Origin: Torpedo marmorata
Lineage: Eukaryota
Assembly (NCBI GenBank): GCA_977017645.1
Contig: OZ360220.1
Span: forward strand, 259,036,001-259,100,000
Direction of reading: 5' to 3'
DNA length: 64,000 bases
Shown here: in pieces, positions 2,318 through 64,000 of the stretch
Numbering within the stretch: position 1 is the first letter of the stretch
Layout of the letters: the number at the start of each line of letters is the position of its first letter
Translations under genes and position numbers: made by a program
Notes under the pieces: model-generated
Databases searched by the model: none
What the model was told of the DNA's origin: nothing
The model's input: the letters and a program-made list of their open reading frames with translations, nothing else

Positions 2318-4029
2318 TTGATTAACAAGGACACGCGATGCATGTGGAAGGGCATTCAAGATATCACCAACCACAAGACTACACCATCTGACTGTGCTGG
2401 TGATGCCTCCCTCCCAGATGCACTGAACAACTTCTACGCACGTTTTGAGGCAAAAAATGATGTAGTGGCAAAGAAGACAACCCCTCCTCCAAATGATCAG
2501 GTGCTGTGTTTCACAGTGGCCGATGTGAGGAGAGTGTTAAGCAAGGTTAACCCACGGAAAGCTGCTGGTCCAGATAACATTCCCGGCAGAGTGCTCAGGG
2601 GATGTGCGGCCCAGCTGGCTGATGTTCTCACCAACATCTTTAACATCTCCCTGAGCAGTGCCATGGTTCCAACGTGCTTCAAAGCCGCTACCATCATCCC
2701 CGTGCCGAAGAGGTCGATGGTGTCCTGCCACAATGACTACCGCCCTGTCGCACTCACATCTACTGTCATGAAGTGCTTCGAGAGGCTCGTCATGGGGCAC
2801 ATCAAGCTTCTGCTGCCCCCCTCACTGGACTCCTTGCAGTTTGCATATAGATCAAACCGCTCCACAGATGATGCCATCATTACCACCCTCCATCTAGCCC
2901 TCACCCACCTGGAAAATAAGGACGCGTATGTTCGAATGTTGTTTATTGACTTCAGCTCGGCATTCAACATGATCATACCTCAGAACCTGATAGGGAGGTT
3001 GAGCGGGCTGGGCCTAAACGACACCCTTTGTAATTGGATTCTAGACTTCCTGACGGGAAGACCTCAGGCAGTCCGGATTGGAAGCAGCACTTCCAAGGTC
3101 ATTACATTGAGCACGGGGGCTCCCCAGGGCTGTGTGCTTAGTCTATTGCTGTTCACTCATGACTGTGCAGCAAAACGCAGCTCGAATCATATCATCAAGT
3201 TCGCTGATGATACGACCGTGGTGGGCCTTATCAGCAAGAACGATGAGTCAGCATACAGAGATGAGGTGCAGTCGCTAATGGAATGGTGCGGAGCCAACAA
3301 GCTGCATCTGAATGTAAATAAAACAAAAGAGTTGGTTGTCGACTTCAGAAGGGCCTGAGGGGATCATTCTCCATTGACCATGGACGGCTCTACCGTTGAG
3401 GTCGTAAAGAGTACCAAGTTTCTTGGAGTGCACTTGGCGGAGAGTCTCAGCTGGTCCCTCAACACCAGTTCCATAGTCAAGAAAGCCCAGCAGCGTCTTT
3501 ACTTCCTGCGAAGGCTGAGGAAAGTTCATCTTCCACCCCCTTTCCTTACTACATTCTACAGGGGATGTATTGAGAGTATTCTGAGCAATTGCATCACCGC
3601 TTGGTTTGGAAACTGTACCATCTCGGACCGAAAGACCCTGCAGAGGATAGTGGGGTCAGTGGAGAAAATTATTGGTGTCTCTCTCCCCACCATGACGGAC
3701 ATCTACAACACATGGTGAATGAGGAAGGCTAAAAACATTGTGAAGGGCTTCTCACACCCCTTTGGTAAACGTTTTTCCCTTTTGCCATCTGGAAGGAGGT
3801 ACCGAAGCACTCGGGCTCGTACGTCCAGACTGTGCAACAGTTTTTTCCCCCAAGCCATCAGGCTCCTCAATTCCTAGATATATATGTGTATTAGCATGTT
3901 ATAGTTTTTTTTTATTGTATAATGATATTTATGTACATCTGCCCATGGTCCTGGAGAAACGCTATCTCGTCTTACTGTGTATATGGTAATGAACTACAAA
4001 TAAAGTTGACTTGACTTGACTTGACTTGA
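2318..4029 (+). mobile_element. 5'-truncated Rex1/Babar-clade non-LTR retrotransposon (RT interrupted by stop codons)
   Basis: ORFs 2318-3358 and 3374-3718 contain [46 protein letters not shown] and KKAQQRLYFLRRL; the 3' tail is AATAAAGTT(GACTT)n. Confidence 0.9.
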
Positions 4030-8710: not shown

Positions 8711-8966
8711 TGTGGTAAACCACTGTTTGTACATATCATGTAGTCTGCTGTCTGTATCATGTAGTCTGCTGTCTGTCCCGGTGCCTCCTCTCCCCTCCCT
8801 TGGGTGTCCAGGTAATCCCTCCCCCTTTCTCACCCGAATAAAGGCCTTTGTGCCACCGCTCCGCCCATAGATCTGCAGGTCGACTGTAGGTCTGTTTAAT
8901 GTCAATAAAAGCCTATGGTTCGTCTCCCACTCATAGTCTCTTGAGTGCTAATTGATAGGTATATCA
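8711..8966 (+). repeat. 5' LTR of Gypsy A (256 bp)
   Basis: TGTGGTAAAC...GTATATCA; matches the 3' LTR except for a 21-bp duplication and a 10-bp deletion. Confidence 0.95.
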
Positions 8967-8989
8967 ATTTTATTGACATTTTAAAAGCA

Positions 8990-11900: not shown

Positions 11901-12921
11901 GACAATGATCAGCAGTTGCCGGGTTTGCGCGGAGTGCAAACCCCAGTTCTACCGCCGCGATAAGGCACAGCTGGTCAAAGCCACTCGCCCCTTTGAACGT
12001 CTCAGCATTGACTTCAAGGGGCCCCTTCCCTCCACGAACCGCAATGTGTACTTTCTGAACATAATTGACGAGTACTCGCGGTTCCCCTTTGCCATTCCCT
12101 GCCCCGACACTTCGGCTGCCTCAACCATAAAAGCTCTTCGCCAGGTATTTACGCTGTTCGGCTTCCCGAACTACATTCATAGCGACCGGGGATCAGCTTT
12201 TATGAGTGAGGAGCTGCGCCAGTACCTGCTGGCCTGGGGCATCGCCACTAGTAGGACCACCGGATACAACCCCCGAGGTAATGGACAGGTGGAAAGGGAG
12301 AACGCCACTGTCTGGAAGGCGGCGCTCCTGGCTCTCAAGGCCAGGGGACTGCCGTTCTCCCGCTGGCAAGAGGTTCTCCCCGAAGCCCTCCATTCGATAC
12401 GGTCCTTACTGTGCACGGCCACAAATGTAACACCTCACGAACGACTTTTCTCCTTCTCCAGGAGGTCGAACACCGGAACCACCCTGCCTGCCTGGCTGAC
12501 GTCTCCGGGACCGGTGCGGCTCCGCAACCACCTTCGGAGCAGCAAATATGAGCCCGCGGTCCAGAGGGTGCAGTTAGCGCACGCTAACCCGCAGTACGCC
12601 TATGTGGTCTTCCCGGATGGGAGAGAGGACACGGTCTCAATTCGGGACCTGGCGCCCGCGGGAGCGCTGGAAGAAACTCTCGACGGGCAAGACCACTCGC
12701 TGCGGCCCCTCACTATTCCCTTTTCTACCCCGTCAGACCCGGCACCCTCGACAGAACCTACACCACAAAAAGCCAGGCAGGAGGAGACAATCCTGCCATC
12801 TCCCCCAGGACCACAGCAGGAGGCGACTGCCTTGCCATCTTCCCCTGCACCACAACCCGCACCCAGGGCACTGCGCAGGTCACAAAGGCGAGCCAAACCA
12901 CCGGATCGCCTTGACCTGTGA
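8990..12921 (+). pseudogene. Gypsy A gag-pol with one nonsense codon (10106-10108) and one frameshift (~10484)
   Basis: Double CCHC knuckle CYFCGLDKHPRKRC/CSNCGKKGHYAKAC, protease LFDTGS, RT YLDD, RNase H SDAS...LLTDQ, integrase HHCC and D-D-E; no chromodomain. Confidence 0.92.
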
Positions 12922-12997
12922 CATACTGTAAATATCTGTTGTAATAGTTATTGTGGCCACGTCACCCCGCTGGACTCTTTTAAAAAGGAGGGGTGAA

Positions 12998-13242
12998 TGT
13001 GGTAAACCACTGTTTGTACATATCATGTAGTCTGCTGTCTGTCCCGGTGCCTCCTCTCCCCTCCCTTGGGTGTCCAGGTAATCCCTCCCCCTTTCTCACC
13101 CGAATAAAGGCCTTTGTGCCACCGCTCCGCCCACAGTCCGGGATAGATCTGCAGGTCGACTGTAGGTCTGTTTAATGTCAATAAAAGCCTATGGTTCGTC
13201 TCCCACTCATAGTCTCTTGAGTGCTAATTGATAGGTATATCA
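12998..13242 (+). repeat. 3' LTR of Gypsy A (245 bp)
   Basis: Direct repeat of the 5' LTR, preceded by the PPT. Confidence 0.95.
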
Positions 13243-24087: not shown

Positions 24088-25564
24088 ACTTTAAGAATGA
24101 CCACTGGCGACCAAGTCAATATTCTTAACAAATTGGATTTAGTTTTGTCATTGCTGTCAGAAGAGGGAAAATTACTTATTGATTGAGGATTTGTTTGAAT
24201 TTTTTATAGATTTGTGTGAATTCCTCGATTATTAAGATTTCAAAGTATTCACCCCATTTGTGCAAGTATGCTGTTCTTCAAATACTCTGAAAATACAGAA
24301 GTTTAAGTCAAAAGTAATCATTTCATGTGGGCAGGCTGAAATTTATTATTAATTGAACACATTTTAAGAGAAAAATATGTGAATAGTTTAGTTTTATTTC
24401 TCTGGCAAGTGTTTAATTTTCCAATTATTTTTACGGAGAGAGATCCACATTCTTCATTTGCATCTCAGTACCATCTTAAAATCCCCAAATTGCACTGCAT
24501 GTATTTGTATTTTCTGCACAATCTCTCACAATTATGTGATGATTCACCTCCTTTCTTTCTCGAACAATTTCTGAAATTGTTTCTCCTCATTACCAGCTAT
24601 TGTGTACGTGATGTCAGTTCTGCTGATGAGTCAAAGTAGAAGTTTCAGAGCCTGCAAGGTTGGAAGTATTGAAATCAAAAGTGTGGAAAGAAGCTAGTGA
24701 ATGGTTAGTACAAGACTACTCGTTTATGAAGACAGTGAACCTCAAAGAAAATTCAAGACAATTCGGGAATTAAAGTCAGGAAAGGAAACTATTGAACAAG
24801 GAAATTAAAACCAATTAATTTGTACAAAAAATGACTGTTTAATCCCATTATTTTAGCAGACATTTCTAATATCCAGTAAAAACATTTAAAAATACTTAAA
24901 GTAGGAGAAGAAATTTCCCATCTCTTTATCATTTGTGTTTTTTTTAATTTCAAGATGATAGCTCCTGTCAAAACCTTGGATTTGCATCAATGTTTTTTTT
25001 TCATTAATGTGTTTGTCATTCTGTTACTACTGCTGAAGCCTGATGTTCACAGAGATAATTTTTTACATCAAGACATTTCTTTCAAGTGTACAATGTTATT
25101 CCCATCATAGTCTCACAAAATGGAAGTTCATTTCCATTCAAAGCCTAATTGACAACCCATTAGAAATTAAAATGTTAACAACTTCTGTGGGTTGTTTCAA
25201 ATATGATTGACAAATAAATCCTTTGCTGAACTGTGAGCTGATGCAACAGCATACAGTTAATATAAAGGTGAAAGAAGACATGGTGCTGCTTTTCTATGGC
25301 CTCTTATTCCATGTGAAGTAGTACTGGTCCATTGCTCATGCTGACCCTCACAGCCCATTCACTCCATCTTCTTAAGACGAGTTGCTAGCAGCAGTTCTCT
25401 GGTGGACCGTGGGAGAAGAAATGACTTGATCTGAGTACTGAGCTGATCCTGACATTGAATAGTAAAACGAAAATCTGTAGACACCGTGGTTGAAGTAAAA
25501 AACACAAATGCTGGAGAAACTCAGCAGGTCAAACAGTGTCTTTTATGTAGCAAAGGTAGAAATA

Positions 25565-25605
25565 CATAACCGACGTTTCGGGCTTGAGCCCTTCATCAAA
25601 GTATG
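25565..25605 (-). ncRNA. Minimal hammerhead ribozyme motif
   Basis: Same motif as 6018-6058. Confidence 0.7.
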
Positions 25606-25998
25606 AGAAAATGCCGGCAGGCGTCCAAACAAAGGAGTGAGGGGGGAAGGGGGATGGCAAAGGCAGGAGATGTTAGGTGGAGAAAGGAGGGAGGGGACAG
25701 CAGCAAAGAGGGGGAGGAGGGATGGCTAGGTAGCTGGAGAAAAACAGGACGGACAGTTGAGGGGGGAGGGGAAGGGAACAACAAGCAGGTTTAGTGGAAA
25801 GCAGAAAAGTCAATGTTAATGCCATCTGGCTGGAGAGTGCCGAGACGGAATATGAGATGTTGTTCCTCCAATTTGCGGGTAGTCTGGGTGGGATAGTACA
25901 TGAGGCCATGGACAGACATGTGAGTGTGGGAGTGTGACCCGGAATTGAAATGGTTGGCTACTGGGAGGTCACTGTTGTTGCGGACGGAGAGGAGGTGC

Positions 25999-27948
25999 TC
26001 AGCAAAGTGGTCCCCAATCTACGATGTATAGAAAGCCACAAAGGGAACACCGGATGCAGTAAATAAGTTCTCTGGATGTACAAGTGAAGTGTAGTTTCAC
26101 TTGGAAGGCCTGTTTGGGGCCCTGGACCGTGGTGAGGGGGGAGGTGTGGGCGCAGGTGTTGCACCTCCTGCGGGCACAGGGGAAGGTTCCGGGGGTGCGA
26201 TGGGTGGGGAGGGATGAGTGCACGAGTGAATCGCGGAGGGAGCGGTCCCTACGGAAGGCCGAGAGGGGAGGAGAAGGAAAAATGTGTCTGGTGGTGGGAT
26301 CCTGTAGTAAGTGCCGGAAATTCCGGTGGATAATGTGTTGGATGCGGAGGCTGGTGGGGTGGTAGGTGAGGATGAGGGGGATTCTATGTTTGTTGCGTCT
26401 GGGGGCAGAGGGGGCCAGGGCAGATGAGTGGGAAATGGAGGAGATGCGGGTGAGGGCTGAGTTGATGGTGGTGGAGGGGAAGCCACGTTTGTGGAAAAAG
26501 GCAGACATTTCAGAAGATCTGGAGTGGAACACCTCATCTTGGGAACAGATGCGGCGGAGGCGGAGAAATTGAGAGAAGGGGATGGAGTCCTTGCAGGGGA
26601 CAGGGTGTGAGGATGTGTAGTCAAGATAGTTGTGGGAGTTGGAGGGTTTGTAGTAAATGTCGGTGGAAAGCTTGTCTCCCGAGATGGAGACAGAGAGATC
26701 CAGGAAGGGGAGAGTGTTATCGGAGATGGACCAGGTGAGTTTGAGATCATGGTGAAAGTTGGATGCGAAGTGGATGAAGTTGACAAGCTCATCGCGGGTG
26801 CATGAGGCAGCCCCGATGTAGTTGTCGATATACCGGAGGAAGAGATGAGGGGTCTTGCCTGTGTAGGCTTGCAGCATGGATTGCTCCACAAAGCCCACAA
26901 ACAGGCAGGCGTAGCTGGGACCCATGCGGGTACCCATGGCTACTCCTTTGATTTGGAGGAAGTTGAAGGAGAAGTTATTGAGAGTAAGGACAAGTTCTGC
27001 CAGGCGGAGGAGGGTGGTGGTAGAGGGTGACTGGTCGGGTCTTTGGTCCAGGAAGAAGCGAAGTGCTTTCAGACCTTCTGTGTGGGGAATAGAGTTATAA
27101 AGGGATTGGACATCCATGGTGAAGATGATGCGGTCCGGTTCAGGGAATCTGAAGTCATTGAGGAGATGGAGGGCATGTGAGGTGTCGCGGATGTAGGTGG
27201 GGAGGGATTGGACCAGGGGAGAAAAGATGGAGTCAAGGTAAGATGAAACTAGTTCGGTGGGGCAGGAGCAGGCAGAAACAATGGGTCTGCCCGGATGGTT
27301 GGGTTTGTGTATCTTGGGTAGAAGGTAGAAACGGGCAGTGCGGGGGTGGGGGAGAATGAGGTTGGTGGCCTTGGAGGGGAGGTGACCGTAGGTGATGAGG
27401 TCGGAGATGGTGTTGGAGACAGTGGCTTGATGTGCTGAGGTGGGGTCCTGTGGGAGGGGTCGGTAGGAAGAGGTGTCTGAGAGTTGTCGACTGGCCTCGG
27501 CAAGGTAGAGGTCAGTGCACCAGACCACAACCGCACCGCCCTTGTCTGCGGGTTTGATGGTGTGGTTAGGATTGTTGCGGAGAGAGTGGAGGGCAGAGCG
27601 TTCTGAGGAGGTGAGGTTGGAATACGAGAGGGGGGTGGTGAAGTTAAGACGGTTGATGTCTTGGCGGCAGTTGGAAATAAAAAGGTCCAGAGAGGGCAGC
27701 TGGCCAGAGCGAGGTGTCCAGGAAGAGGAAGAAGGCTTGAAGCGGGAGAAAGGGTCTTGGGTGGGGGGTGGAGAATCACGGTCATGGAAGTGAGCACGGA
27801 GGCGGAGGCGACGGAAGAAGAGTTCGGCATCATGGCGTGCGTGGAACTCGTTGAGGTGTTGGCGGAGGGGGACAAAGGTGAGGCCTCTACTGAGGATGGA
27901 GCGCTCCCTCTCAGAGAGGGGAAGGTCGGAGGGGATAGTAAAAACCAA
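25999..27948 (-). pseudogene. Penelope reverse transcriptase-GIY-YIG ORF (defective)
   Basis: IKPADKGG, FYLLPKIHK, PGRPIVS, MDVQSLY, GVAMGTRMGPSYA; catalytic RYIDD appears as RYIDN; GIY-YIG region LIYCIRC..CGFLYI is broken by a deletion and frameshift near 26025. Confidence 0.9.
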
Positions 27949-28427
27949 GCAGGGGTTAGAGTGGGGATCGGTGTTGTGGAGGGTGTTGGGGGGAGGGGTA
28001 GGGTTGGGGTGGTCAGAGGGGGGAGGTGGAGAGTGGGGGAGGTTGGAGGGTGGGGGAGGGGGGGTCGGAGGGGGGAGGTGAGGAGTAGGGGAGGTAGGAG
28101 GGTGGGAGAGGGGGGTAGGGAGGGTAGCCAGAGAGAGGGGGGGTGATGGAGGGAAGGGAAGGGATGAGGTCTAAGGGTGGGGGAGGAGAGTGGGGCAGAG
28201 AGGGGGAGATGTGGGTGGAGTAGGGAGAGGTGCAGGAGGAGAGGGAAGGAGTAGTGAGGGGGATAGGTAAGTGGGATCTTGTTGCAAGATGAGGACTCCA
28301 GTGGCAGTCAGCGTGGGAGGCTCCAGCAGGTAACAGTCTGTGTCGGGAGTCGGCGGTGGAGGCATCGGGAACTCTGGTGAGTAGAGGCTCGGGGTCTTAC
28401 GTCTTAATTTTTCTCCCGACATTTTTC

Positions 28428-28468
28428 CATACCTTGATGAAGGGCTCAAGCCCGAAACGTCGGTTATG
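28428..28468 (+). ncRNA. Minimal hammerhead ribozyme motif, sense to the SLC24A2 pre-mRNA
   Basis: CATACC-TTGATGA-AGGGCTCAAGCCC-GAAACGTC-GGTTATG; stem I CAUACC/GGUUAUG with a 1-nt bulge. Confidence 0.72.
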
Positions 28469-29009
28469 TATTTTTACCTTTGCTATATAAAGGACATTGC
28501 TTGACCTGCTGAGTTTCTCCAGCATTGTGTTTTTACTTCAACCATGGTGACTGCAGATTTTCGTGTTTTACTTCTAAACTCTTTTAATCCTGACTGAAAT
28601 AAAAATCATTCTTTCAGATTTTTAATTGAATCTTTCAGTAGTTCAGCCCTCACTTTGGGCGGTGGCAGGTTTGTTCATGCCTCATTAATTGCCTATTATA
28701 AGTAGACCTTGAGTTTTCTTGAGTTATTTCAACTTGTAGTCCTTGAACCTTTCAAAATCATTTCCCTCACCAGGTTTCAATTGATTTGTTATGGCAACAT
28801 TTGTTTCCACCAAGTATTTTCCACAGCCTTCAGTTGGTGATTTATGTTTTTTTCCAAATTTAGTTACGAATGCTCCTCAGGTAGCTGTTGATTATCCAAA
28901 AAGTGACGAGTTGAGCGATGGTTTCTGCTGTAGTCTCTGTAGATATTCCTGGAACATGTGTTTCATGGTGATAAGCAATAGACAACTTGACATAAATAGT
29001 GTACAGTGC

Positions 29010-37068: not shown

Positions 37069-37187
37069 ACAAAGTAGAGCTGCCAAACACAGCCAATGTA
37101 GAAGTTGAAGTAACACCTCCGAAGGATCCTCCCGCAGCGGTGCAAAACGGAAGCCTGCCCAATGGAGCAGAGGTGGCAGTGGGCCAG
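37069..37187 (+). CDS. SLC24A2: SLC24A2 internal exon, 119 nt
   Basis: atgcag|...CAG|gtctgt; (D)KVELPNTANVEVEVTPPKDPPAAVQNGSLPNGAEVAVGQ is homologous to NCKX2 EKIELPNS...VQNG; phase 1-0 fits the flanking exons. Confidence 0.88.
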
Positions 37188-37863
37188 GTCTGTGTACTTA
37201 TGTCCGCGCAGAGGTGGCAGTGTACCAGGTCTGTGTACGTGTGTCCGCGCAGAGGTGGAAGTGGGCCAGGTCTGTCTAAGTATGTCCGCGCAGAGATGGC
37301 AGTGGGCCAGGCCTGTGTACGTGTGTCCGTGCAGAGGTTGCAGTGGGCCAGGTTTGTGTACACGTGTCCACGCAGAGGTTGCAGTGGGCCAGGCCTGTGT
37401 ATGTGTATCCGCGCAGAAGTGGCAGTGGGCCAGGTCTGTGTACACATGTCTGCGCAGAGGTTGCAGTGGGCCAGGTCTGTGTACGTGTGTCTGCACAGAG
37501 GTTGCAGTGGGCCAGGTCTGTGTACGTGTGTCTGCACAGAGGTTGCAGTGGGCCAGGTCTGTGTATGTGTGTTTGCGCAGAGGTGAGAGTGGGCCAGGTC
37601 TGTGTACGTGCGTCCGCGCAGAGGTAACAGTGGGCCAGGTCTGTGTATGTGCGCCCACGCAGAGGTTGCAGTGGGCCAGGTCTGTGTACGTGCGTCCGCG
37701 CAGAGGTAACAGTGGGCCAGGTCTGTGTATGTGCGCCCACGCAGAGGTTGCAGTGGGCCAGGTCTGTGTACGTGCGTCTGCGCAGAGGTGACAGTGGGCC
37801 ATGTCTGTGTACGTGCGTCCGCGCAGAGGTTGCAGTGGGCCAGGTCTGTGTGCACGTGTCCGT
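37167..37863 (+). repeat. Minisatellite, 17 x 41 bp, containing the exon/intron junction
   Basis: Consensus GCAGAGGTTGCAGTGGGCCAG|GTCTGTGTACGTGTGTCCGC; units start at 37167 + 41n. Confidence 0.97.
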
Positions 37864-38078
37864 GAAAAGTTGGTTGGCTCTGATGGAAAGGCAAATATTA
37901 TGTTAGTCGTCCACCATCAGAGATGTGAACTGTTGGCAGCTTAATCCCATAATTATGTTTGAATTGGTATCTTTGCTAGTTTGCTTATTAAACAATTACT
38001 TTTTCATTGCTAAATATTTCCAAATTTTCTATTATTTCTGTGTCAAACAAAAGGTTTGGAAGTTACATTATAATACAA

Positions 38079-39146
38079 AAGTAAATCACGAAATTCTGTA
38101 GACACCGTGGTTGAAGTAAAAACACAAATGCTGGAGAAGCTCAGCAGGTCAAACAGTGTCTTTTATGTAGCAAAGGTAGAAATACATAACCGACGTTTCG
38201 GGCTTGAGCTCTTCATCAAAGTATGAGAAAATGCCAGCAGGCGTCTGAACAACAGATGATGGGGGGAAGGGGGGTGGCAAAGGCAAGAGATGATAGGTGG
38301 AGAAAGGAGGGAGGGGACAGCAGCAAAGAGGGGGAGGAGGGATGGCTGGGTGGGTGGAAAAACTGGAAGGACAGGGAAGGGGGGAGGGGAAGGAAAAGGC
38401 AAGCAGGTTTAGTGGAAAGCAGAAAAGTCAATGTTAATGCCATCTGGCTGGAGAGTGCCCAGACGGAAAATAAGGTGATGTTTCTCCAATTTGCGGGTAG
38501 TCTGGGTGGGATAGTACATAAGGCCAAGGACAGACATGTGAGTGTGGGAGTGTGACTCGGAATTGAAATGGTTGGCTACTGGGAGGTCGCTGTTGTTGTG
38601 GACGGAGAGGAGGTGTTCAGCGAAGCGGATGGAGAGGAGGTGCTCAGCGAAGCGGATGGAGAGGAGGTACTCAGCGACCTCCCAGTAGCCAACCATTTCA
38701 ATTCCGAGTCACACTCCCACAGTCACATGTCTGTCCATGGCCTTATGTACTATCCCACCCAGACCACCCGCAAATTGGAGGAACAACACCTTATTTTCCG
38801 TCTGGGCACTCTCCAGCCAGATGGCATTAACATTGACTTTTCTGCTTTCCACTAAACCTGCTTGCCTTTTCCTTCCCCTCCCCCCTTCCCTATCCTTCCA
38901 GTTTTTCCACCCACCCAGCCATCCCTCATCCCCCTCTTTGCTGCTGTCCCCTCCCTCCTTTCTCCACCTATCACCTCCTGCCTTTGCCACCCCCCCCCCC
39001 TTCACTATTTTGTTCGGATGCCTGCCGGCATTTTCTCATACTTTGATGAAGGGCTCAAGCCCGAAACGTCGGTTATGTATTTCTACCTTTGCTACATAAA
39101 AGACACTGTTTGACCTGCTGAGCTTCTCCAGCATTTGTGTTTTTAC
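38079..39146. mobile_element. Foldback (palindromic) Penelope-derived insertion with 15-bp TSD
   Basis: Arms 38116-38592 and 38672-39146 are near-perfect reverse complements; TSD TACATTATAATACAA at 38064-38078 and 39147-39161. Confidence 0.93.
39037..39077 (+). ncRNA. Minimal hammerhead motif, sense to SLC24A2 (antisense copy at 38185-38225)
   Basis: CATACT-TTGATGA-AGGGCTCAAGCCC-GAAACGTC-GGTTATG. Confidence 0.7.
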
Positions 39147-39577
39147 TACATTATAATACAATATTGAGGCAAATATATGACTGAGACTGGTCAATGAAAG
39201 GTTTAATACATCTATCCTGTCAAGGTATGAGCATTCAGGCCTGAAACGTTGGTTACCCTTTTCTACCTACAGATGCTGCCTGACATGTTGATTCTCCACC
39301 ACCTTTGTGTATTGCACTACAATCCCAGCGTCTGCAGACTTTTCTATTTAGCTTTATTAATGTGGTACGCTGTATCTTCCTTTCACAAATACTCAGGATA
39401 TCAATTCTCTGAGAACTGTTGATCATAGCTATTCATTCAACTGAGTTAAACTATTAGAATCACTTAAATTACTCCACTAGAATCCTCCCATTTTGTCTGA
39501 TTGTTGCGAAGTCTGAACATTTCTTGGACAATCAGTGTAGTCCAAATGTATTTCTCAAGTTGACTGACAATATCAAC

Positions 39578-43727: not shown

Positions 43728-44346
43728 TTAAATCAGAACAGATCTGGCTGCTCAAAACAAGCCATCCCTGAAGTGATGTGGACCATCAGGAGCAGCAGAA
43801 TTGTGCACCACTACAGTCTGTAACCTCACAGCCCAGTGTGTTCCTCACTCTGCAATTGCTATAAATCGATGGGATCAACCCTTGTTGATCTTAAAGTGCA
43901 GCAGATCATGCCAGGAGCAGCATCAGACTCACCTAATAATGAAGTATCAATCTGATGAAGCTAAATCTTGGGACTAACTGTGAAATGATAGCAAAAACAG
44001 CCAAGTAATTCCCAGCCAGCCAATCAGATTGAAGTTCTGCAGTCCTGGAACATGAATGGTGGAGAGCAAGGTTCTGAGAGGAGCGTCTAATATATTCCCA
44101 TCCTGAATGATAGTGGGGCTCAGCACGAGTGCTAAAGGTGAGGTTAAAACATTTGCAATAATGTTCAGCTGGAAGTGCAGAGCAATGATCCATCACACTT
44201 CCTCCTGAGATCCCTGTTATCACAAAAGCCATTCTTCGCCAATATCAAGAAATGGTTAAGACACCAGAAGCAGCAAATTCTGTGGGACCAGATAACATCT
44301 CAACCTAATATTGGAGACCTGCACTACAGAAACAACTGTGCCTCCA

Positions 44347-47300
44347 TGATGCACCATCAATAACTCCGAAAGACTAGAAGTTATGTAGGAACTGACAGGC
44401 TTTTATTTACATCGGAATGGATGCACATTCCTGGTGGCCGTCTGTCCTGGACTGGGGAGGGAGCTGTGGCACAATGGCCTTTATTCAGGCGTCTGTGGGA
44501 GGAGCCATAGGCACAGTCAGCAAGGGGCGTGTCCAGACGACTACAAACATATATACAGTGGTTTACCACATTCACCCCTCTTTTTTAAAAAGAGTCCTGC
44601 AGGGTGAAGTGAATTAAAGTTCTCACAGATTGAGTCTTTCAGGTGGTCTGGTCTGCCGCTGTGACCGTCATAGTACCGGCTGCGGCGCAGCTGTTGCATC
44701 CAGTCCTGTTTGGACCACCTGTGTATTGTTGTCGGCTCTGACTTGGTGGATGCGTGGCGGCGAATCTGGCATGCCATCCCCAGGGGCTGGGGTCACTTGC
44801 CATGGCAACAGTGCATTGCAGGTGGTGGTAGGTGGGGGGGGGGGGCGCAGGGTGGTCGGCAATGGTGTCAGGGACTCCTGAGGGCGCGAGGTCCCGAACG
44901 GAGACCATGTCCTCCCACCCATCAGGGTACGTCACGTAGGCGTATTGGGGGTTGACGTGGAGGAGATGGACCCTTTCGACCAGTGGGTTGTGTTTATGGC
45001 TCCTCGCATGCCTCCGGAGTAGAACCGGCCCTGGGGACATCAGCCAGGACGGCAGCGTGGTCCCTGAAGCGGACTTCCTAGGAAAGGAAAACATTCTCTC
45101 ATGTGGATTGGCATTGGTGGCGGTACATAAGAATGATCTAATTGAGTGGAGTACATCGGGGAGGACCTCTTGCCAGTGGGAGACTGGAAGACCTCTAGAC
45201 TTTAGGGCTAGAAGGGTGGCCTTCCAGACGGTAGCGTTCTCCCTCTCCACCTGCCCATTCCCTCGGGGATTGTAACTGGTGGTCCTGCTTGTGGCGATGC
45301 CACTGGCCAGGGTACTGACGCAGCTCGTCACTCATAAAAGAGGACCCCCAGTCGCTATGAATATAGCAGGGGTACCCAAACAGAGTGAAGAGGTTGCGCA
45401 GAGTCTTGATGACTGTGGCAGTGGTCATGTCCGGGCAGGAGACGGCAATAATGTTGAGGAAGTACACATTGCAGTCAGAGGAGGGGAGGGGTCCCTTGAA
45501 ATCGATGCTCAGGCATTCAAAGCGGCGGGTGTCTTTTATCAAGTGCGCTCTGTCTGGTTGATAGAAGTCCAGTTTGCACTCCGCACAGATCTGGCAGTTC
45601 CTGGTCATGGTCCTGACCTCCTCGATGGAGTAAGGTAGGTTGCGGCCTTTTATGAAGTGGAAGAACCTGGTGACCCCGGGGTGGCAGAGGTCGCTGTGGA
45701 GGGCTTGTAAGCGGTCTATTTGTGCGCTGGCACATGTTCCGCGGGATAGGGCATCTGGGGGCTCATTGAATTTTCCGGGCCGGTACAAGATATCGTTATT
45801 GTAGGTGGAAAGTTTGATTCTCCACCTCAGTATCTTGTCATTTTTGATTTTGCCTCGCTGTTGGTTGTTAAACATAAAAGCAACTGAACGCTGGTCAGTT
45901 AGCAAGGTGAATCGTTTTCCGATGAGGTAGTGCCTCCAGTGCCGTACCACCTCGACAATGGCTTGGGCCTCCTTCTTGACAGAGGAGTGTCGGATTTCTG
46001 GGCCCTGGAGGGTGCGGGAAAAGAAAGCTACGGGTCTGCCCGCTTGGTTGAGGGTGGCGGCCAGGGCGAAGTTGGACGCATCGCTCTCCACCTGGAACGG
46101 GGTGGATTCGTCCACAGCGTGCATCGCAGCTTTGGCGATGCGGCTGAAGTCCGCCCGGGCCTCTGACGTCAGGGGAAAAGAGGTGGATTTGACGAGGGGG
46201 CGGGCCTTGTCCACATAATTGGGGACCCACTGGGCATAACACGAGAAAAAGCCCAGGCACCTTTTCAGGGCTTTGAGGCTGTGGGGGAGGGGGAGTTACA
46301 ACAGGGAGCGCATGCGGTCTGGATCTGGGCCAGTTACTGCGTCCTGTACGACGCAGCCAAGGATAGCAAGGCGGGTTGTGCCAAAGACGCATTTATCCTT
46401 ATTATAAGTAAGGTTGAGGAGTTTGGCGGTCTGTAGGAATTTTTGGAGGTTGGCTTCATGATCCTGTAGGTCATGGCCGCAAATGGTAATGTTATCCAGG
46501 TAAAGGAATGTGGCCTGCAGCCCGTGCTGGTCGACCATTCGGTCCATCTCCCGCTGGAAGACCGAGACCACATTGGTGACGACAAAGGGAACCCTCAGAA
46601 AATGATAGAGGCGGCCATCAGCCTCGAAGGCAGTGTATTGGCAGTCCTCCTGGCAGATGGGGAGTTAGTGGTATGCCGACTTTAAATCGATGGTAGAGAG
46701 TACCCGGTATTAGGCAATTTGGTTCACCATGTCGGCTATGCGGGGGAGAGGGTACGCGTCCAGCTGCGTATATCGGTTGATGGTCTGACTATAATCAATG
46801 ACCATCCTGTTTTTTTCCCCATTCTTTACCACCACCACTTGGGCTCTCCAGGGGCTAGTGCTGGCTTCAGTAATCCCCTCCTTCAATATCTGCTGCACCT
46901 CTGACCTGATAAAGGCCCTGTCCCCGGCACTGTACCACCTACTTTTGGTGGCAACGGGTTTACAGTCAGGGGTAAGGTTAGTGAACAGCGGTGGGGGGGT
47001 GATCCCGAGGGTAGAAAGGCCGCAGGTCGCGCGCGGTGGGTGATCTGTGGGTTGCTGTCTGGACGCGATGGGAGGGGAGGCCGGGGAGCTTCTGTGGGTG
47101 AATTGCGGTGGGCGGTTTACAAACTGTGGATTACAGACGGTGAGGGGGGGATGTGGCCCATCGTACTCCAACGTCACGCTTTTAAGGTGACATTGAAAGT
47201 CTAGCCCCAGTAGCACGTAAGTGCAGAGCTGTGACATAACGAGTAGTTTAAAAAGTTTATACTCTGTGCCCAGCACAGTCAGGGTCACTACGCAGTAACC

Positions 47301-48773
47301 GCGAATCTCTGCCATGTGGGACTTGGAAACCTTGGAGACTTTGTGGCTTACCGGCATTACCGTGAGGCGGTAACGCTGTACCTTGTCGGGGTGTATAAAG
47401 CTCTCCATGCTCCCACTATCGAACAGGCAGCTCATCTTGTGGCCGTCCACCTCAACGTCCATCATCGATCTGGCCAGTTGATGGGAGATCCCTTGATCCA
47501 GCGTGATGGAGGCCAGTACTGAGCCGCTGTCGGGTTCCGTAGAATTGATGCGGTGTTCGGTCCCAAGATGGCGCCGAAGAAGCGATCGGGTTTTCGGTCC
47601 CAAGATGGCGCCATCCAAGATGGCGGCCCCCATGGTTCGCACGCGGCGCTGCTGAGTTGGGAAGATGGTGGCGCCCAAGATGGCAGCACCCCTTGCTCGC
47701 ATGCAGCGCTGCTGGGTCTTGAGGGCGGTTTGGACTTGCAGACTTTCGCGTAGTGCCCCTTCTTCCCGCAGCTGGAGCAGACCGCGTCTTTTGCCCGGCA
47801 GCGTTTTCTGGGATGCTTGTCCAGGCCGCAGAAGTAGCACTTCAGCTGATCGCGGAGTATAGCGGCCGTAGTCGAGTCGCTGACGGGATGCGGCGGTGGC
47901 GGTGTTCCACAGGCTTGTGGTCCTCCCGCGTCCCAAGATGGCAGCGCCCTCGGTAACCACGATGTGGCCACGTTATCGGCTGAGTACACGTCCATATTTT
48001 GGAGGGCCACTTCTAGCGTGCCTGCTAGGTCCACTGCCCTCTGCAAATTATGCTCACCCTGCTCCAACAGTCTGCCGTATGTAATTGGATCGGATGCCAG
48101 CGACATAGGCATCTCTAATGAGGTCCTCTGTGTTCGCCACGGCCATTACGGCCTTGCAGCCACAGGCCCGTCCGAGGGTTCGCAGGGCCCGTAGGTACTC
48201 GGCGCTCGATTCCCCGGGTCGCTGTTTTCGGGTAGCCAGGAGATGCCTAGTTTAAACCTCATTTACCTTCTTCAGGTCCTGGCGTCTCAGCATGTCCATG
48301 GCCTCCTGATAAGATTCGGCGTCCCTGATCATAGAATATACCCGGGGCCCGACCCAGGAATGTAGTACTTGCAGTTTGTCTTCCTCAGATTGGACGACAG
48401 TAGCGGAGGCCCTCAAGAATGCCTCAAAACAACGCAGACGGTGTTCAAAACTGTTGGATGCCTCAGGTGATTGAGGATCGAGTTCTAACTTCTCTGGTTT
48501 CAGGTACTGATCCATTATCGAAAGCGATGTAAATAAAATTGATGCACCATCAATAACTCCGAAAGACTAGAAGTTATGCAGGAACTGATAGGCTTTTATT
48601 TACATCGGAATGGATGCACACTCCTGCTGGTCGTCTGTCCTGGACTGGGTAGGGAGCTGTGGCACAATGGCCTTTATTCAGGGGTCTATGGGAGGATCCA
48701 CAGGTACAGTTAGTAAGGGGCGTGTCCAGATGACTACAAATATATATACAGTTATATACAGTGGTTTACCACA
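44347..48773 (-). mobile_element. Full-length Gypsy LTR retrotransposon B (same lineage as A, more decayed)
   Basis: LTRs at 48540-48773 (5') and 44347-44570 (3') differ by ~15 substitutions and a 10-bp duplication; CTCCA TSD; PPT; gag ATG at 48515; frameshifted gag-pol homologous to A, with RT YLDD appearing as YLDN. Confidence 0.95.
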
Positions 48774-49454: not shown

Positions 49455-52400
49455 TCAAAAAGAAATGATATTTATCACGTAAGTGATTTTTTCAAGTGGT
49501 ATACATGAACGCAATTCAGCATGCCATCTTTCTAACCCTAAATCTACATCCGATTTCCATGTAATGGCAATACATTTCTTAGAAACAGCTAAAGCACTAG
49601 TTCCTTTAATATCTCCAAACAAAAATATCATAGGATCCATTGGGAGTGTAATTCTTAATACTTTATCTAAAAACTATTTAACCTTCAACCAAAAATCATA
49701 CACTTTTGGACAAAACCATGTAGAATGTACAAAAGAACCTTCCTCACTATTACATCTAAAATATAAACCAGATAATGTCAGATTAAATTTCTTTTGTCTT
49801 TTAGGTGTTAAAAATAATTGATGGAAAAAATTATAGTTGCACCAGTCTATATCTAACATTAATAATCTTCGTCATACTATGTTTACATAATTTTTTTCAG
49901 TGTTCTTCATCTATTGTTACACTCAAATCTGTTTCCCAATTTAATCTTGATTTGTGAATTCCTGGTTTAGGCAATTTCCTCTGTAACAATCTATACATTT
50001 GAGAAATAAATTTAGAAACACCTCCATTAGTAACTAATAATTCCAATTCAGTCTGCCTTGGTAAAATCAAACTATGGCCCAACCTTTCAACTAAAAATGC
50101 TCTGATTTGATAGTAAGCAAAGATTGTATTATCTGCTACATTAAACTTATCTTTCATTCTTTGAAACGTAATAAATTTACCAGCTTCAAAACAATCATTT
50201 ATTTCCTTAATTCACTTTTGGAACCAAATTTTAAATAATTGATTATCAACAGTAAATGGGATAAGTTTATTTTGGTACAGAGGCATTCTTCGAGAAATTG
50301 ACCTTTCGCTCCTATTTCTCTATCCACTCTATTCCATATTTCTAACAAATGTCTAAAAATAGGAGAATTTTTCCCTCTAATTAATAATAATTTAGAATTC
50401 CATTTATAAATGACTTCTTCTTTCAAATCCTCTCCTATATTATTTAATTCTATTCTAATCCAAGCAGAGAGTTTCCCTAAATCAAACAATTCGTTAATAA
50501 ATTTTAGTTATGCTGCTTTATAGTAATATTGAAAATTAGGAAGCTGTAGACCACCCATTTCATAATTCCAGGTAAATTTCTCCATACCTACTCTAGCCAA
50601 CTTTCCTTTCCACAAAAATTTCCTAATAATTAAATATAAATCTTTAAAAAATTTCTGAGGAATTTCATAAGGAATTGATTGAAAAAGATATTGAATTCTC
50701 AGAAAAACATTCATTTTAATACAATTTACCCTTCCCATTAGAGTTATAGGTAAATCCTTCCAACTCTCCAGATTTTTTTTATATTCCCAAATAATGGTAA
50801 ATAGTTTAATTTATACAAATTGGTTAATTTTGTATCAATCTTTATTCCCAAATATTTAATTCCTTCCTTTGACCATTTAAATTGTGTAATTTCTTTACAT
50901 TTACTATAATCCCCTTGTGTTAAAGGCATAATTTCACTTTTATCCGAATTAATCTTATAACCAGATATTTCCCCATATTCTTTCAATAAAACAGACAATT
51001 GCATTAAAGAATTAATAGGTTTTGTCATATATATCAATACGTCATCTGCAAATAAACTAATTTTGTGTTCTTCATTACCAACTTTAATACCTGCAATCTT
51101 AATATCTTGTCTAATTAATTCAGCTAAAGGTTCTATTGCTAAAATAAACAATGCTGGCGATAAAGGACAACCTTGTCTAGTAGACCTAGTTAAGGAAAAT
51201 TTTGAAGATATTTGTCCATTTGTGACTACTCTAGCAGAAGGTTCTTTATATATAGTTTTAATCCAATTAATAAATGTATTTCCAAAACCGAATTTTTCCA
51301 GTACCTTAAATAAATAATTCCACTCTAATCTATCAAAAGCCTTTTCGGCATCTAATGTTAATACTAATGCCAGCTCCTCTCTTTTTTGTGCCACGTTTAT
51401 TAAACTAATTAATCTAGCGATATTATCTTTTGTATATCTGTTCTTAATAAAGCCTGCTTGATCTACATGAACTAAATCTGGTAAATACTTAGCCACTCTA
51501 TTTGCTAAAATTTTCGCCATTATTTTATAGTCCACATTTAACAACGATATTGGTCTATATGATTCTGTTTTCCACAAGTGTCTATCTTTTTTCGGTATAA
51601 CTGTTATTATTGTGTTTGAGAAGGTTTCCGGTAGTGAATGAGTTTCCGTTATTTGTTTTAACACTTCCATATAAGGAGGTATCAATAAGTCCTTAAACTT
51701 CTTATAAAATTCTGATGGAAAACCATCCTCCCCCGGAGATTTCCCACTTGTTAACTTCCCTCATCGTAAATGGTGAATCTAAAGATTCTTTACTAAGTTT
51801 ATTTAACCTAGGCATCTTAATTTTGGATAAAAATTTGTTAATTTTAGAATCATCTTTATCGACTTGAGATGTATATAAATTCAAATAAAAATCCTTGAAA
51901 GAATCATTTATTTCTCGCGGTTTATAAGTTATTTTCTTAGAATTCTTTTTTGTAGCCGTTATAGTTCTAGAGGTTTGTTCTTTCTTTAATTGCCAGGCTA
52001 AAACTTTATGAGCTCTTTCTCCCAATTCATAATACCTTTGCTTGCTTCTTTCAATGAGTTTTTCCAATTTATATGTTTGTAACGTATTATAATATAATTT
52101 TTTCTCAATTAAATTTTTCTTCTTTTCTTCTGATCTCTTTTTTTGTAAATCCTTCTCCAAAAACTCAATCTCCTTCTCCAAATTATCCAATTCCTGAATA
52201 TTTTCCTTCTTAATTTTTGCTGAATAACTTATTATCTGACGTCTTAAATAAGCTTTCAAAGCATCCCAAATAATAAATTTATTCTCAATGGAATCAGAGT
52301 TAATCTATAAGAATTCTTGGATTTCTCTTCTTATATATTTACAAAAATCCACTCTTTTTAGTAAAGAAGAATTAAACCTCCATCTATATATAATTTTTTC

Positions 52401-53124
52401 TTTTTCTGGAATTATGCATGACATTAATAAAGGCAAATGGTCAGAAATTAATCTTGCCTTATATTGTGCTTGAGTCACCCTATCTTGTAATTGTGATGAC
52501 AGTAAAAATATGTCTATTCTAGAATAAGAATCATGTCTAGAAGAATAAAAAGAATAGTCTTTTTCTCTCGGATTCAACTTCCTCCAAATATCAATTAAAT
52601 TCAAATCTTTCATCATAGTAAGAATTCTTTTAGCAGTTTTAGTTCTAATGATTGATTTAGATGTTTTATCCATTGCTGGGTCTAAACAACAATTAAAATC
52701 TCCACCAATTAAAATATTATCGTTTGCTTCTGACAAATGCATAAAGGAATCTTGAATAAATTGTTCATCTTGTGTATTTGGCACGTATATATTCATGAGT
52801 CCACATTTCTGAATATATCTGACAGTTTATTAAGACATATCTTCCTGACACATCAGTAACCACCGATTGTATTTTAAAGGGTAACTTCTTATTAATTAGT
52901 ATAGCAACACCTTTAGCCTTAGAATTAAATGAAGATGCTACTACTTGACCAACCCATTCTCTTTTCAACTTCTGATGTTCTAACTCAATCAAATGTGTCT
53001 CTTGTAATAAAGCTATGTCTACGTTTAGCTTTTTGATGTATGCTAAAGTTTTCTTCCTTTTAATCAGATTATTGAGCCCATTTATATTAATACTGACTAC
53101 ATTTATTAATTTACTGTCCGCCAT
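49455..53124 (-). pseudogene. L1 ORF2 (APE endonuclease-RT), multiple frameshifts and stops
   Basis: SININGLN, LLQETH, GGDFN, SRID, ISDH; YRPISLLNVDYK, LDAEKAFD, RQGCPLSP, LFADD. Confidence 0.92.
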
Positions 53125-53411
53125 TGCTGATATTTAATAACTCTCTCTCCATCGGATCCGCCGGCTCCCCCTTCCACATTTGTAATCTATTTGTCATCTC
53201 CTTAGAAAGAATAAGAGAAAAGGAAATAAAAAGAGAATAGAGAACTAAAGAACCCACTATATATAATACTGGTATATTTACACCAGTACTACCACCCTCC
53301 ATTGCTCGGGAAGTGGCCCTCGCCACTAAAATGATGCACGACTAAGTACGAAGAAGACAAAAAGTCCACCTCCCCCCAAACAGATTTCCAACAAAATTTG
53401 TTATCGTTTCT

Positions 53412-54800
53412 TCATCCAGCAACTTCAAGATCTCTATTAACTTGATCCTCATCGATTACGACCCCATTTTCTTGTTCCAAAACTCTTGGTGAGAGCAATT
53501 CTTGAGCCGGTAAGATGACTTGATATCGCCCTGAAAAATCTTGATCTTTCTTTAATTCCGGAAGTAAATTTGCATGCTGTAGAGCCTCTTGAGGGTCAGT
53601 GAAGAAAAGTGACTGATTCTCTGCAGATTGAACTTTCAATATCGCAGGATATCTAAATGAAAATTTATATCCTTTACCCCACAAAACCGCTTTCGCCGGG
53701 TTAAATTCTTTCCGTTTTTTTATAATTACCGAACTCAAATCAGCATAAAAAAACATACTATTTTTATCGATTATCAACGGACCATGATGAATTCTTGCCT
53801 TCTGAACAGCCAATTTCAATATTTTTTCTTTATCCTGATATCTAAGGCACTAATTAGAATTGAACGTGGTCTTTGACCAGGATATGGTTTTCTCCTGCTA
53901 TCTCTATGAGCTCTATCCATTTCAAAGTCTGCGGAATCCAGTTTTGAAAAAATATTGTTGGATTTGTCCCTTCAAAATCTTCAGGCAGTCCCACAATTTT
54001 AACATTGTTTCTCCGACTCTGATTTTCCAATACATCTATTTTTTGTAAAAGTTCATTCCTTTGTAGCTCCCAACCTGTGAATGAATCTTCCACTTTATCC
54101 ACTCTATCCTTATAGTCCACCATTTCCTCGTAATGTTCCTTAACATTCTCTTCAATTTTTTGAACCCTCAGTAGTACTTTATCCACAATATTTGAATGCT
54201 TTTTCATATCTTGTTTAACAGCATTTATTTCTTCCTTTACCTCTTTAAATCCATGCTGCATACGTTGATTCAGTAATGAAACTTGTTTTGTTAATTTGTC
54301 CATAGCTTCAATAAGAGTCATTGATAATTCTTGTTTACCTTGAAGCATTGGAGCCTCCTCTTCTCCACTTATTTCTTCTTGCTCCTCTCCCTCCATCTCT
54401 TGCATTCCTCCTTCCAATTCTTGATATCTTTCTTCCTCTCTTCTCTTTTCTTCTGAATCTGTAGATGACGATAATTCCTGTTCAGCTTCATGGCAGTACA
54501 TATCTGACAGTTCGCGATCTTTATCGCGCATGCGCGTCATTCGCACATGCGCAAACGTTCCGCCGGAAGTTGTAGTCTTTTAACCTTTCTTCAAGCACCA
54601 GCGCCATTTTCCCCAGCTCCCCAGGAGGACGGCGCTGGTGCTGTAGTTACCTTCACCGTCCTCGTCTGCATCTTCCTCGGAGGGAGAGGAACTTGATCCC
54701 GAGGCTCCATCGTTAAGGTAGGCCAGTCTTCCTCCTGAATTAAACTCTCGTTAAACTCCGGTTTTTTTTACTTTTGTTCTTTCGTTTTCCTAGTAGACAT
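53412..54800 (-). pseudogene. L1 ORF1 (acidic region, coiled coil, Transposase_22-like RRM/CTD), disrupted
   Basis: LENQSRRNNVKIVGLPE, FYADLS...RKEF and FRYPAIL motifs; probable ATG at 54800. Confidence 0.85.
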
Positions 54801-61740: not shown

Positions 61741-62676
61741 ACAAGAAAATCTGCAGACACTGAGATTGTAGTTTAAAACACAAAAATGCTGGAGAAACTC
61801 AGCAGGTCATGCAGCGTTCTTTATGGCAAAGATACATAACCAATGTTTCGGGTCTGATCCCTTTGTCGAGGTATGAGCAAAAAGCAGGCAGGTGCCTGAA
61901 TAAAATGGTGGGGAAGGGCAGGTGGAGAAGCACAGGCCCACAGGCAAGAGGTCATAGGTGATATAGATGGGAGAGCAGAAGAGAACAAAGCTGGGAAGTG
62001 ATAGGAGGAGGAGAAGAAATAGCTCTCTGAATGGAGAGGGAAGGGGGTTGGGTGCTGAAGGAAAGGAGAGAGAGAGAGAGAAGGAGAGGTCTAATGGAAA
62101 ATGGAGAAGTTGATGTTAATGCCATCTGGTTGGAGAGTGCCCAGACGGAATATTAGGTGTTCCAATTTGCGGGTCGCCTCAGTTTGGCAGTGCATGATGC
62201 CATGGACAGACATGTCGGCAAGGGTGTTGGGTGCGGAATTGAAATGGTTGGCCATTGGGAGCTTGCTGCTTTTGCTGCGGCAGAGCGAATGTGCTCAACA
62301 AAATGATATCCCAGTCTGCATCCAGCCTCTCTGATGTAGAGGCGGCCACAACGAGAGATCTAGATATAGTAGACCCCTGTAGATTCACAAGTAAAGTGTT
62401 GCTTCACTTGGAAGGACTGTTTGGGGCCCCGAATGATGGTGAGGGAGGATGTGTGACCGCATGTAGTATTTCCTGCGGTCACAGGGGTAGGTACAAAGTG
62501 GGTGATTAGTGGGAAGGGATGAGTGTACGAGGGAGTCACCGAGGAAGTGTTTTTGCAGAAGGCGGAGAGGGGAAGATGTGTCTGGTGGTGGGATCACGTT
62601 GCAGGTGACGGAAATGGTGGAGGATGATATGTTGGATGCTGAAGCTAGTGGGGTGGTAGGTGAGGACAAGGGGAAT
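61741..62676 (-). mobile_element. Older Penelope 3' portion (pLTR, GIY-YIG and RT C-terminus remnants)
   Basis: Colinear with 25465-26385 but more diverged; degenerate hammerhead at ~61835-61875. Confidence 0.85.
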
Positions 62677-62715
62677 TCACATTCAAAATTGACCCACACT
62701 TTTTTCATGTTGCAG

Positions 62716-62805
62716 AGTTCGCAGAAATATTTTGTAATTTCGTTCTTGGGGTCAATCACCTGGATTGCAGGCTTTTCCTATCTAATGGTCTGGTGGGCTC
62801 ACCAG
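62716..62805 (+). CDS. SLC24A2: SLC24A2 internal exon, 90 nt
   Basis: ttgcag|...|gtaagc; SSQKYFVISFLGSITWIAGFSYLMVWWAHQ. Confidence 0.96.
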
Positions 62806-63398
62806 GTAAGCACGCTGATCTCTGGTAATTATGAACCAAAAACTGAACTTTTTTTTACTTTGCAGGTATTATTCCTTTTCTCATTAAGTAGCCATCAGAT
62901 AGTGATTCTTCACATCATTAACCCTTCAGAAGAGAAAGAGATGGAAGTTGTAAACATTACATGTATAATGGAGGCATTAATGCACGTGGAGCTCGTTTTC
63001 TGAAAATTGGAATCTAATTTTGGAAGCAAAGCTTAATACACTGTTCTGCATCGCAAATTTAGTTGTTGCATACTGCAAGATAAATCTTTATCCCATGAGG
63101 CATCTTCTAAAATGATTGACAAAATCTAAACCACCTAATCCATTGATGTCTTAGGAGAAAATGATAGAATTATGAAATGAACACATCAAAATACAATTAC
63201 ATTGGTCAAAATAAAACTGATTTTTGTCAATGTACATAATTAGTTAAATCATAACTTTAAAAAAATTCCTTGTGTCTATTCTTCGGATGAAAAAAATAGG
63301 TAAAATAAATCAATTGCATGTGCACAAACCATCTAAATAAAAGCTAAATTCCAGGAATCAAAGGTGGTTATCTTGAACAAAGTTTACCCCTTTGAAAA

Positions 63399-63476
63399 TG
63401 TATTTGACGGCATACAAGACCCACTTTTTTTCCAAAAAATTGCCTCAAAAATATCGCCGGGTCTTATATGCGAAGT
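63399..63476 (+). mobile_element. Putative left end of a Tc1/mariner (Tc2-like) non-autonomous DNA transposon
   Basis: TGTATTTGACGGCATACAAGACCC...GGGTCTTATATGC resembles the CCGTATTT..GTATAAGAC / GTCTTATAC subterminal hairpin of Tc2-type MITEs; no right end is visible in the window. Confidence 0.45.
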
Positions 63477-63638
63477 TGAAATTAGGGTGATAATGGTGAG
63501 TATCACCGACAGTGAATATCGTCGCTGCGTGGCTCAGTATCAGGGAGGGAGGGATCCCCCGCTGTCTGCCCGGTATTGCCGCCTGACCCCGGTATCAGGG
63601 AGGGAGGGATCCCCCGCCGTCCACTCGGCATTGCCGCG

Positions 63639-63941
63639 ATGGCCGCTGAGCAGGTCGCTGGCTACTCACCCAGCTTCAAGAAGCCCGCGGAGGTGCTGCG
63701 GCTGTCCAGGAAGCGGGCCCGCAGCTTCGTGGGTCACCTTCCCTCGGGTGGCCCGTGCTTTCCGGAGCCGCCGCCACCGCTCACTTCCCCCGGTGAGAAG
63801 GCTGACCACGGCGGCCCCCGCCAGCAGTGCAAGAGGTGCAGGAGGAACCCATTCGCCAACATTGCCAACACCCGTGGGTTGCCGGTGGGGACCCCAGGCC
63901 CTGGGGCTGGGCGGCCTGCCGAGGAGAAGCCGCACAGCAAA
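63639..63941 (+). other. DONSON: DONSON-like first coding exon (101 codons) with Kozak ATG and GTGAGT donor; probably a captured gene fragment
   Basis: MAAEQVAGYSPSFKKPAEVLRLSRKRARS...RRNPFA resembles the DONSON N-terminus as I recall it (human [28 protein letters not shown]...RRNPFA); CpG-rich; GCCGCGATGG start; AAA|GTGAGT donor. Confidence 0.75.
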
Positions 63942-64000
63942 GTGAGTGAGAACTGAATTAAAAACATTCTGCTTACCCATAAATACACTAAAAAAAATTC

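Follow-up and report, generated by a model that had tools for sequence, protein, structure and literature searches.

Self-complementary primer sites in a chromodomain-less Ty3/gypsy clade of Torpedo marmorata and other animals point to priming without tRNA

Two Ty3/gypsy elements in the window

The minus strand of the window, i.e. the whole 64,000-nt stretch of Torpedo marmorata DNA that was analysed, carries a Ty3/gypsy element, here denoted element B, with a 14-bp self-complement at its 5′ end. Comparison of its LTRs delimits a 5′ LTR of 234 nt running from TG to CA (48540–48773) and a 3′ LTR at 44347–44570, the two being identical at 209 of 224 aligned nt (~93%). The 3′ LTR is preceded by a polypurine tract (44571–44586), and the element is flanked by the 5-bp target-site duplication (TSD) TGGAG (44342–44346, partner at 48778–48774). 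The intervening gag-pol (44639–48515), traced by translation and Pfam, is interrupted by several stops and frameshifts but still holds two CCHC knuckles, protease, RT, RNase H and integrase; Pfam itself returned protease, RNase H and a weak integrase match, and no match to a chromodomain in gag-pol. The order of gag followed by PR-RT-RNase H-IN is, like the TG…CA LTRs, the TSD and the polypurine tract, that of Ty3/gypsy elements, and the best match among solved structures was the Ty3 RT (E 2e-55). Judged from its sequence, element B is an old, broken copy belonging to a chromodomain-less animal clade of Ty3/gypsy.

The leader of element B is compact. The 5′ LTR ends in CA at 48540 and is followed by a one-base spacer, an A at 48539, and by the self-complementary primer-binding site (48525–48538), which lacks TGG; the gag ATG lies close behind at 48515. 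The sequence-only reading had proposed a perfect 14-bp match between this site and the LTR, and the match was confirmed: 48607–48594 reads CGATGTAAATAAAA and 48538–48525 reads TTTTATTTACATCG, its exact complement on the minus strand. The LTR arm (48594–48607), the predicted self-primer, ends in the hexamer AATAAA and is followed by GCC; the identical primer sequence recurs in the 3′ LTR at 44414–44401. From the primer to the LTR end (48540–48593), a long stem starting at the GCC is predicted by folding.

A sister family is represented by element A on the plus strand (8711–13242), with LTRs at 8711–8966 and 12998–13242, the TSD CCCCC, and Pfam matches to RT, RNase H and integrase. Its leader has the same layout, with a primer at 8898–8910, a spacer A at 8967, a primer site at 8968–8980 and an ATG at 8990, and its pairing arms form 13 bp. 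The one-base spacer and the nearby gag ATG that had been noted for both elements are thus borne out, as are two covarying pairs between them: C-G versus A-T at position 8, and A-T versus G-C at position 13. Because position 13 falls within a CpG on both arms, changes there are weak evidence. The LTRs had also been called otherwise diverged, and they do differ, albeit only moderately (74% identity over 205 aligned nt).

Element A is young: its LTRs are identical at 235 of 235 aligned nt, without a single substitution, and the 5′ LTR differs by one short duplication and one short deletion. Despite this youth it carries a stop and a frameshift in the gag-RT interval, while other copies are single frames of ~1,300 codons. 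Both elements have an extra AATAAA followed by GGC some 60–70 nt upstream of the primer, at ~8837–8842 (plus strand) in A and at 48673–48678 (minus strand) in B. This extra motif resembles the primer end plus GCC, and may be either a relic duplicate or a real poly(A) signal.

The remainder of the window includes a broken L1-like non-LTR element with ORF1-like, endonuclease and RT segments (50744–54579, minus strand), a tandem array with a 41-bp period (37086–37959), and LINE fragments with RT similarity at 2312–3358, 25458–28572, 38077–39150 and 61745–63945, those at 38077–38628 and 38672–39150 forming an inverted pair.

LTR-site pairing across and within families

Relatives were sought by an RT-RNase H scan of metagenomes, which returned 80 loci, 46 of them with a gag start. 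Removal of 18 near-copies (the best-paired copy being chosen in two families) and of two loci that were too short left 26, and addition of four families from the own genome of 6.2 Gb, in which family copies were also searched (A, B, L153 and L195), gave 30 families. Most metagenome loci have an RT-RNase H 53–64% identical to that of element A. Among named proteins the closest belong to rays and a catshark, with a sea anemone, a damselfly and a nematode supplying more distant ones; a search of viral contigs for relatives found none.

The comparison over many family members that the sequence-only reading had proposed gave a clear result. In 28 of the 30 families the LTR pairs with the primer site at no fewer than 10 of 12 positions, starting 1 nt after the LTR-end CA, and in 21 of them at all 12; the exceptions, L100 and L122, reach 7 and 8 of 12. 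When the 200 nt preceding gag were searched for their longest helix without anchoring, most loci showed the same register. Chance is thereby ruled out as the source of the pairing, as none of 6000 shuffles reached 12/12 (the best value, 11, occurred six times), although choosing the CA from several candidates within the final 70 nt biases the observed values slightly upward; where both LTRs are present the ends agree. Each LTR matches its own site rather than a common one, with a mean pairing of 11.4 for the own primer site as against 7.0 for that of another family. Over positions 5–12, 221 of 224 cells are Watson-Crick in the 28 families and the mutual information is 1.21 bits, falling to ~0.2 when the arms are slid, and the sites comprise 27 distinct 12-mers. 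Since the families share ancestry, these family counts are not independent events.

A primer site starting with TGG, as expected for a tRNA 3′ end, was found in none of the 30 families, and a tRNA 3′-end primer is ruled out on this basis. The flanks of the pairing are similarly constant, with the spacer being A in 25/28 families and (A/G)CC directly following the primer in 24/28. The primer ends in xxTAAA in 23/28 families and in canonical AATAAA or ATTAAA in 14/28; locus L108, which has no hexamer, is still paired (GAAGA/TCTTC). The duplex is mostly 13–18 bp long and fades between positions 14 and 17. A conserved TT-AG-TT occupies duplex positions 13–8, with the G present in 25/28 families, and resembles an initiator motif; no TATA box was found upstream of the primer in any of the 28 families.

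Some other families of the same genome differ in this region. Gmr1-like (integrase before RT) and CsRn1-like families are abundant (L183–L192, L201–L234), labels assigned from domain order and motifs; these mostly carry TGG a few bases after the LTR and have a self-complement of at most 7 nt. The CsRn1-like family falls on a separate branch. A fungal-type chromovirus, L199, has by eye a 9-nt self-complement preceded by a TATA box. Within the clade, this genome also holds a third and distant family (L153–L182), with a Gag ~35% identical to that of element A and an 18-bp duplex ending in AGTAAA. Locus L090 carries the LTR end and primer site as two tandem copies before gag (94–362).

Within families, copies were picked by their Gag. 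Pairing was perfect in all 30 such copies of family A, which fall into three matched versions (15, 9 and 6 copies). Among 30 copies of family B, position 8 was A-T in 15 and G-C in 12, the other three having a mismatch or wobble, and 15 were perfect over 14 bp. The matched versions within families are inherited and therefore represent roughly three events. Hardly any G-U pairs occur, with 1/316 in the duplex as against 33/305 in neighbouring predicted stems, a contrast that is large but biased, as the duplex was chosen by its Watson-Crick score and the comparison stems are only predicted. This near absence fits a primer that is copied into the daughter's site better than stepwise compensation. 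The sequence-only reading had taken the covariation as evidence for a selected RNA structure in place of a tRNA primer: the LTR-derived primer is well supported, far beyond two elements, while the covariation need not reflect compensatory selection on RNA structure.

Folding of the element B leader (48615–48513) gave z = −4.13, with 0 of 200 shuffles as stable, as compared with z = −0.61 for the matching 3′ LTR stretch without the primer site. The side helix that is conserved begins with the (A/G)CC immediately behind the primer, where four bases are paired above shuffles in 22/28 families (Wilcoxon p = 4e-5, the families not being independent). A hairpin at the LTR end had likewise been proposed to covary. 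An inverted repeat can indeed be drawn there in A and B, taking in the spacer together with base 1 of the primer site, but as a conserved part the hairpin is rejected, since it exceeds shuffled loops in only 5/28 families and is absent from the B fold. The hairpin has P = 0.58 in A; the terminal CA is paired with P = 0.00 in the predicted fold of B, and is paired in 7/28 families.

Fold-back copies and the source of the primer

Aberrant copies provide a second line of evidence. The own genome was searched for patterns in which U3 is followed by an inverted LTR end, with the reversed patterns as control. This yielded 48 fold-back junctions, five in family B and 43 in family A, and none in the control. 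In every match the primer is followed by T, the complement of the spacer, and then by the inverted LTR end; when gaps of 0–30 nt were allowed, 43 of 44 family-A matches retained the exact register. Twenty of the 48 were inspected (5 B, 15 A). Their second breakpoints all differ, and 17 extend to the TG of the LTR, two of them (L313 and L314) with the polypurine tract before it; in the fold-backs the entire U3 precedes the primer. In seven of the 15 inspected A copies the inverted arm ends 50–65 nt away from the junction, close to the AAA/GCC boundary (56–57). All nine fold-backs that are legible to both ends have 5-bp TSDs (seven exact, two with one mismatch), and hence arose in cDNA before integration; host chromosomal rearrangement is ruled out as their origin by these TSDs and by the ends at TG. 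The duplex thus forms in this register in reverse-transcription products, and polymerase extends from one duplex end, although the fold-backs do not tell which.

Fold-backs are frequent in this clade and are integrated with normal TSDs (L295–L314). Two are small near-palindromes with two U3 ends (L298, L312), and two others are the size of a solo LTR with a short internal inversion (L295, L299). Seven junctions (C30, C31, C39, C40, C45, C51, C80) have a further version of the family-A primer, which ends in ATTAAA.

In combination, the pairing data and the fold-backs make it likely that a piece of the LTR, rather than a tRNA, primes minus-strand DNA synthesis, as in Tf1. With somewhat less assurance, we favour a Tf1-like route by analogy, in which a short 5′ piece would probably be released by RNase H. 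Within the transcript, the LTR piece would bind the site; cleavage at AAA/(A/G)CC, probably by the element's own RNase H as in Tf1, would free a 3′ end from which synthesis would be extended. Because the primer would remain joined to the new DNA, its sequence would be copied into the daughter's site, keeping both arms matched. The copy of the piece in the 3′ LTR would often serve as the poly(A) signal, leaving a short repeat after (A/G)CC for strand transfer, while pairing in the 5′ LTR would hide that signal. The hexamer-like xxTAAA at the primer end in 23/28 families, which would leave that short repeat, and the initiator-like TT-AG-TT speak for this route. Several observations speak against it: the TATA box is absent upstream of the primer, unlike in the fungal chromovirus L199; the duplex exceeds the 11 nt of Tf1 and has a fuzzy outer end; side helices like those of Tf1 were not found; use of the upstream AATAAA of A and B would terminate the RNA ahead of the primer; and a canonical hexamer ends the primer in only 14/28 families.

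The primer could also derive from the 3′ LTR copy, either as the genome's own 3′ end or from a second RNA, cut or ended at AAA. This is a sub-variant within the LTR-primer explanation and appears unlikely. It is favoured by the whole U3 carried in the fold-backs (and in two of 20, L313 and L314, also the polypurine tract), by the lack of an upstream TATA box, and by the fuzzy outer end of the duplex. The fossils are in fact silent on the choice between 5′ and 3′ LTR, as fold-back of a DNA ending in a copy of the site yields the same DNA as primer extension. Poly(A) cleavage occurs 10–30 nt after the hexamer, so that a hexamer at the primer end would place the RNA end further on than AAA, and the initiator-like TT-AG-TT at positions 13–8 would fit a 5′ piece better.

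Readings in which the LTR piece does not prime at all fare worse. That the pairing only masks the poly(A) signal of the 5′ LTR, in the manner of the retroviral poly(A) hairpin, while some other RNA primes, would explain why xxTAAA ends the primer piece in so many families (23/28, canonical in 14) and why the pairing partner is present only after the 5′ LTR. It is nevertheless improbable: it leaves no primer site, given that the partner fills exactly that position 1 nt after CA; pairing persists where the hexamer is missing (GAAGA/TCTTC in L108); G-U pairs are nearly absent; and masking alone leaves the joining of fold-backs in register unexplained. It is less probable still that the match is a DNA-level by-product without a role, left by an old inversion or by template switching that happened again and again. 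Switches of the fold-back type are indeed seen at the primer site, but the register, length and flanks are fixed over 28 families, and no other primer site is present. Priming by a host tRNA fragment or other small RNA, with the LTR match as a by-product, is just as improbable, the 27 different site sequences each matching their own LTR. The best match to the sampled tRNAs was 6–7 nt at any position but 1 nt when confined to the 3′ end, in a sample of only nine anticodon types (33 genes) that lacks the types needed for positive controls. In favour of this reading, half-tRNA priming is described for copia lineages (PMC6317226).

Relation to Tf1/sushi and other self-primed elements

Self-priming itself is a mechanism already known from Tf1/sushi, so that the novelty lies in the lineage and in the design. 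Proven self-priming rests on Tf1 of fission yeast, and within Gypsy it is treated as a mark of Tf1/sushi (PMC6317226, bioRxiv 10.1101/2022.12.06.519325). No paper on self-priming in the present clade was found in the literature covered, a body that leaves aside the primary Tf1 papers, Butler 2001, Repbase and GyDB, where a mention could already exist.

The placement of the clade was examined by a tree of RT-RNase H (24 rows subsampled from 61, without named reference elements), in which the clade (100/100) is separate from a fungal/vertebrate branch (100/99) whose members are unnamed proteins related to the chromodomain-bearing L199, not Tf1 or sushi themselves. A quick tree of 47 rows agrees with this careful one. 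Union of the clade with three vertebrate rows of that branch was rejected (p-AU 0.004), while a position as sister to the whole chromovirus branch was not (p-AU 0.24), the clade having a long stem of 2.5 changes per column. The chromodomain that follows the integrase in Tf1/sushi had no Pfam match, and none was present among the 120 relatives listed. In the own genome the exact chromovirus RT motif had no match, and none of 12 chromodomain loci checked there matched integrase or RT. Going by these comparisons, the clade appears to work like Tf1 but falls outside the Tf1/sushi-like branch.

We suggest tentatively, as a scenario that may not hold in all its parts, that tRNA-free priming evolved independently of Tf1/sushi in a large chromodomain-less Gypsy clade of cnidarians, nematodes, insects and cartilaginous fish. 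A single LTR element of 13–18 nt would there act as initiator, primer and poly(A) signal, cut at AAA/(A/G)CC beside a single stacked stem, with the primer site rewritten every cycle and fold-back fossils recording the junction at base resolution. It has been proposed that hairpin priming preceded tRNA priming (PMC3601003), and a further self-primed clade, very abundant in animals and with a leader built differently, would help to choose between a hairpin-first history and repeated origin. Elements of the clade would presumably offer tRNA fragments no target site, and would be overlooked or wrongly labelled by annotation tools for which a tRNA site is mandatory. Fold-back copies allow priming junctions to be mapped from genome sequence alone.

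The closest parallels are Tf1 and Tf2 of Schizosaccharomyces pombe, Tj1 and the Tf1/sushi chromoviruses, which are likewise Ty3/gypsy elements with a site by the 5′ LTR that is complementary to an upstream piece of the LTR, and without a tRNA site. In Tf1 the first 11 bases are described to pair, with RNase H cutting after base 11 (PMC7175516), and the primer site is copied into cDNA (PMC11042837). The duplex of the present clade is mostly longer, at 13–18 bp, ends in AAA before (A/G)CC, and often overlaps a poly(A) hexamer. The clade further differs in having no chromodomain match, two CCHC knuckles, a length of 4.0–4.5 kb and no TATA box. The 'pretzel' of Tf1, as presented in bioRxiv 10.1101/2022.12.06.519325, includes a helix in which the LTR pairs with bases that follow the site; such a helix exceeded shuffles in 0/28 families. 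With the LTR-end helix doing so in only 5/28, the three-duplex leader and its side helices were not found here, by simple folding tests of limited power.

Beyond Tf1/sushi, the known or predicted self-primed cases (PMC6317226, PMC4600332) are Tcn1 (plant Ty3/gypsy) and TAR (plant Ty1/copia), for which self-priming was predicted from complementarity to the LTR located 0–5 nt after it (PMC6317226). The same feature is present here, the complement starting 1 nt after the LTR (14 bp in element B, at least 10 of 12 positions in 28 of the 30 families); unlike the present clade, both are plant lineages, Tcn1 clustering with Tf1/sushi and TAR being a copia element. The 'conserved hairpin site' of fungal GalEa copia elements and bivalve TRIMs similarly dispenses with a tRNA site, but both of its arms are described as lying in the internal region (PMC6934838), whereas here one arm lies in the LTR. 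The short animal Gypsy clades Cigr-1, MolGy, Mag and Saci2, compared by their published descriptions only (PMC11117352, PMC12471100), include some reported to be of similar size and to have a single gag-pol frame, with Saci2 set apart by TSDs of 4 bp as against the 5 bp found here.
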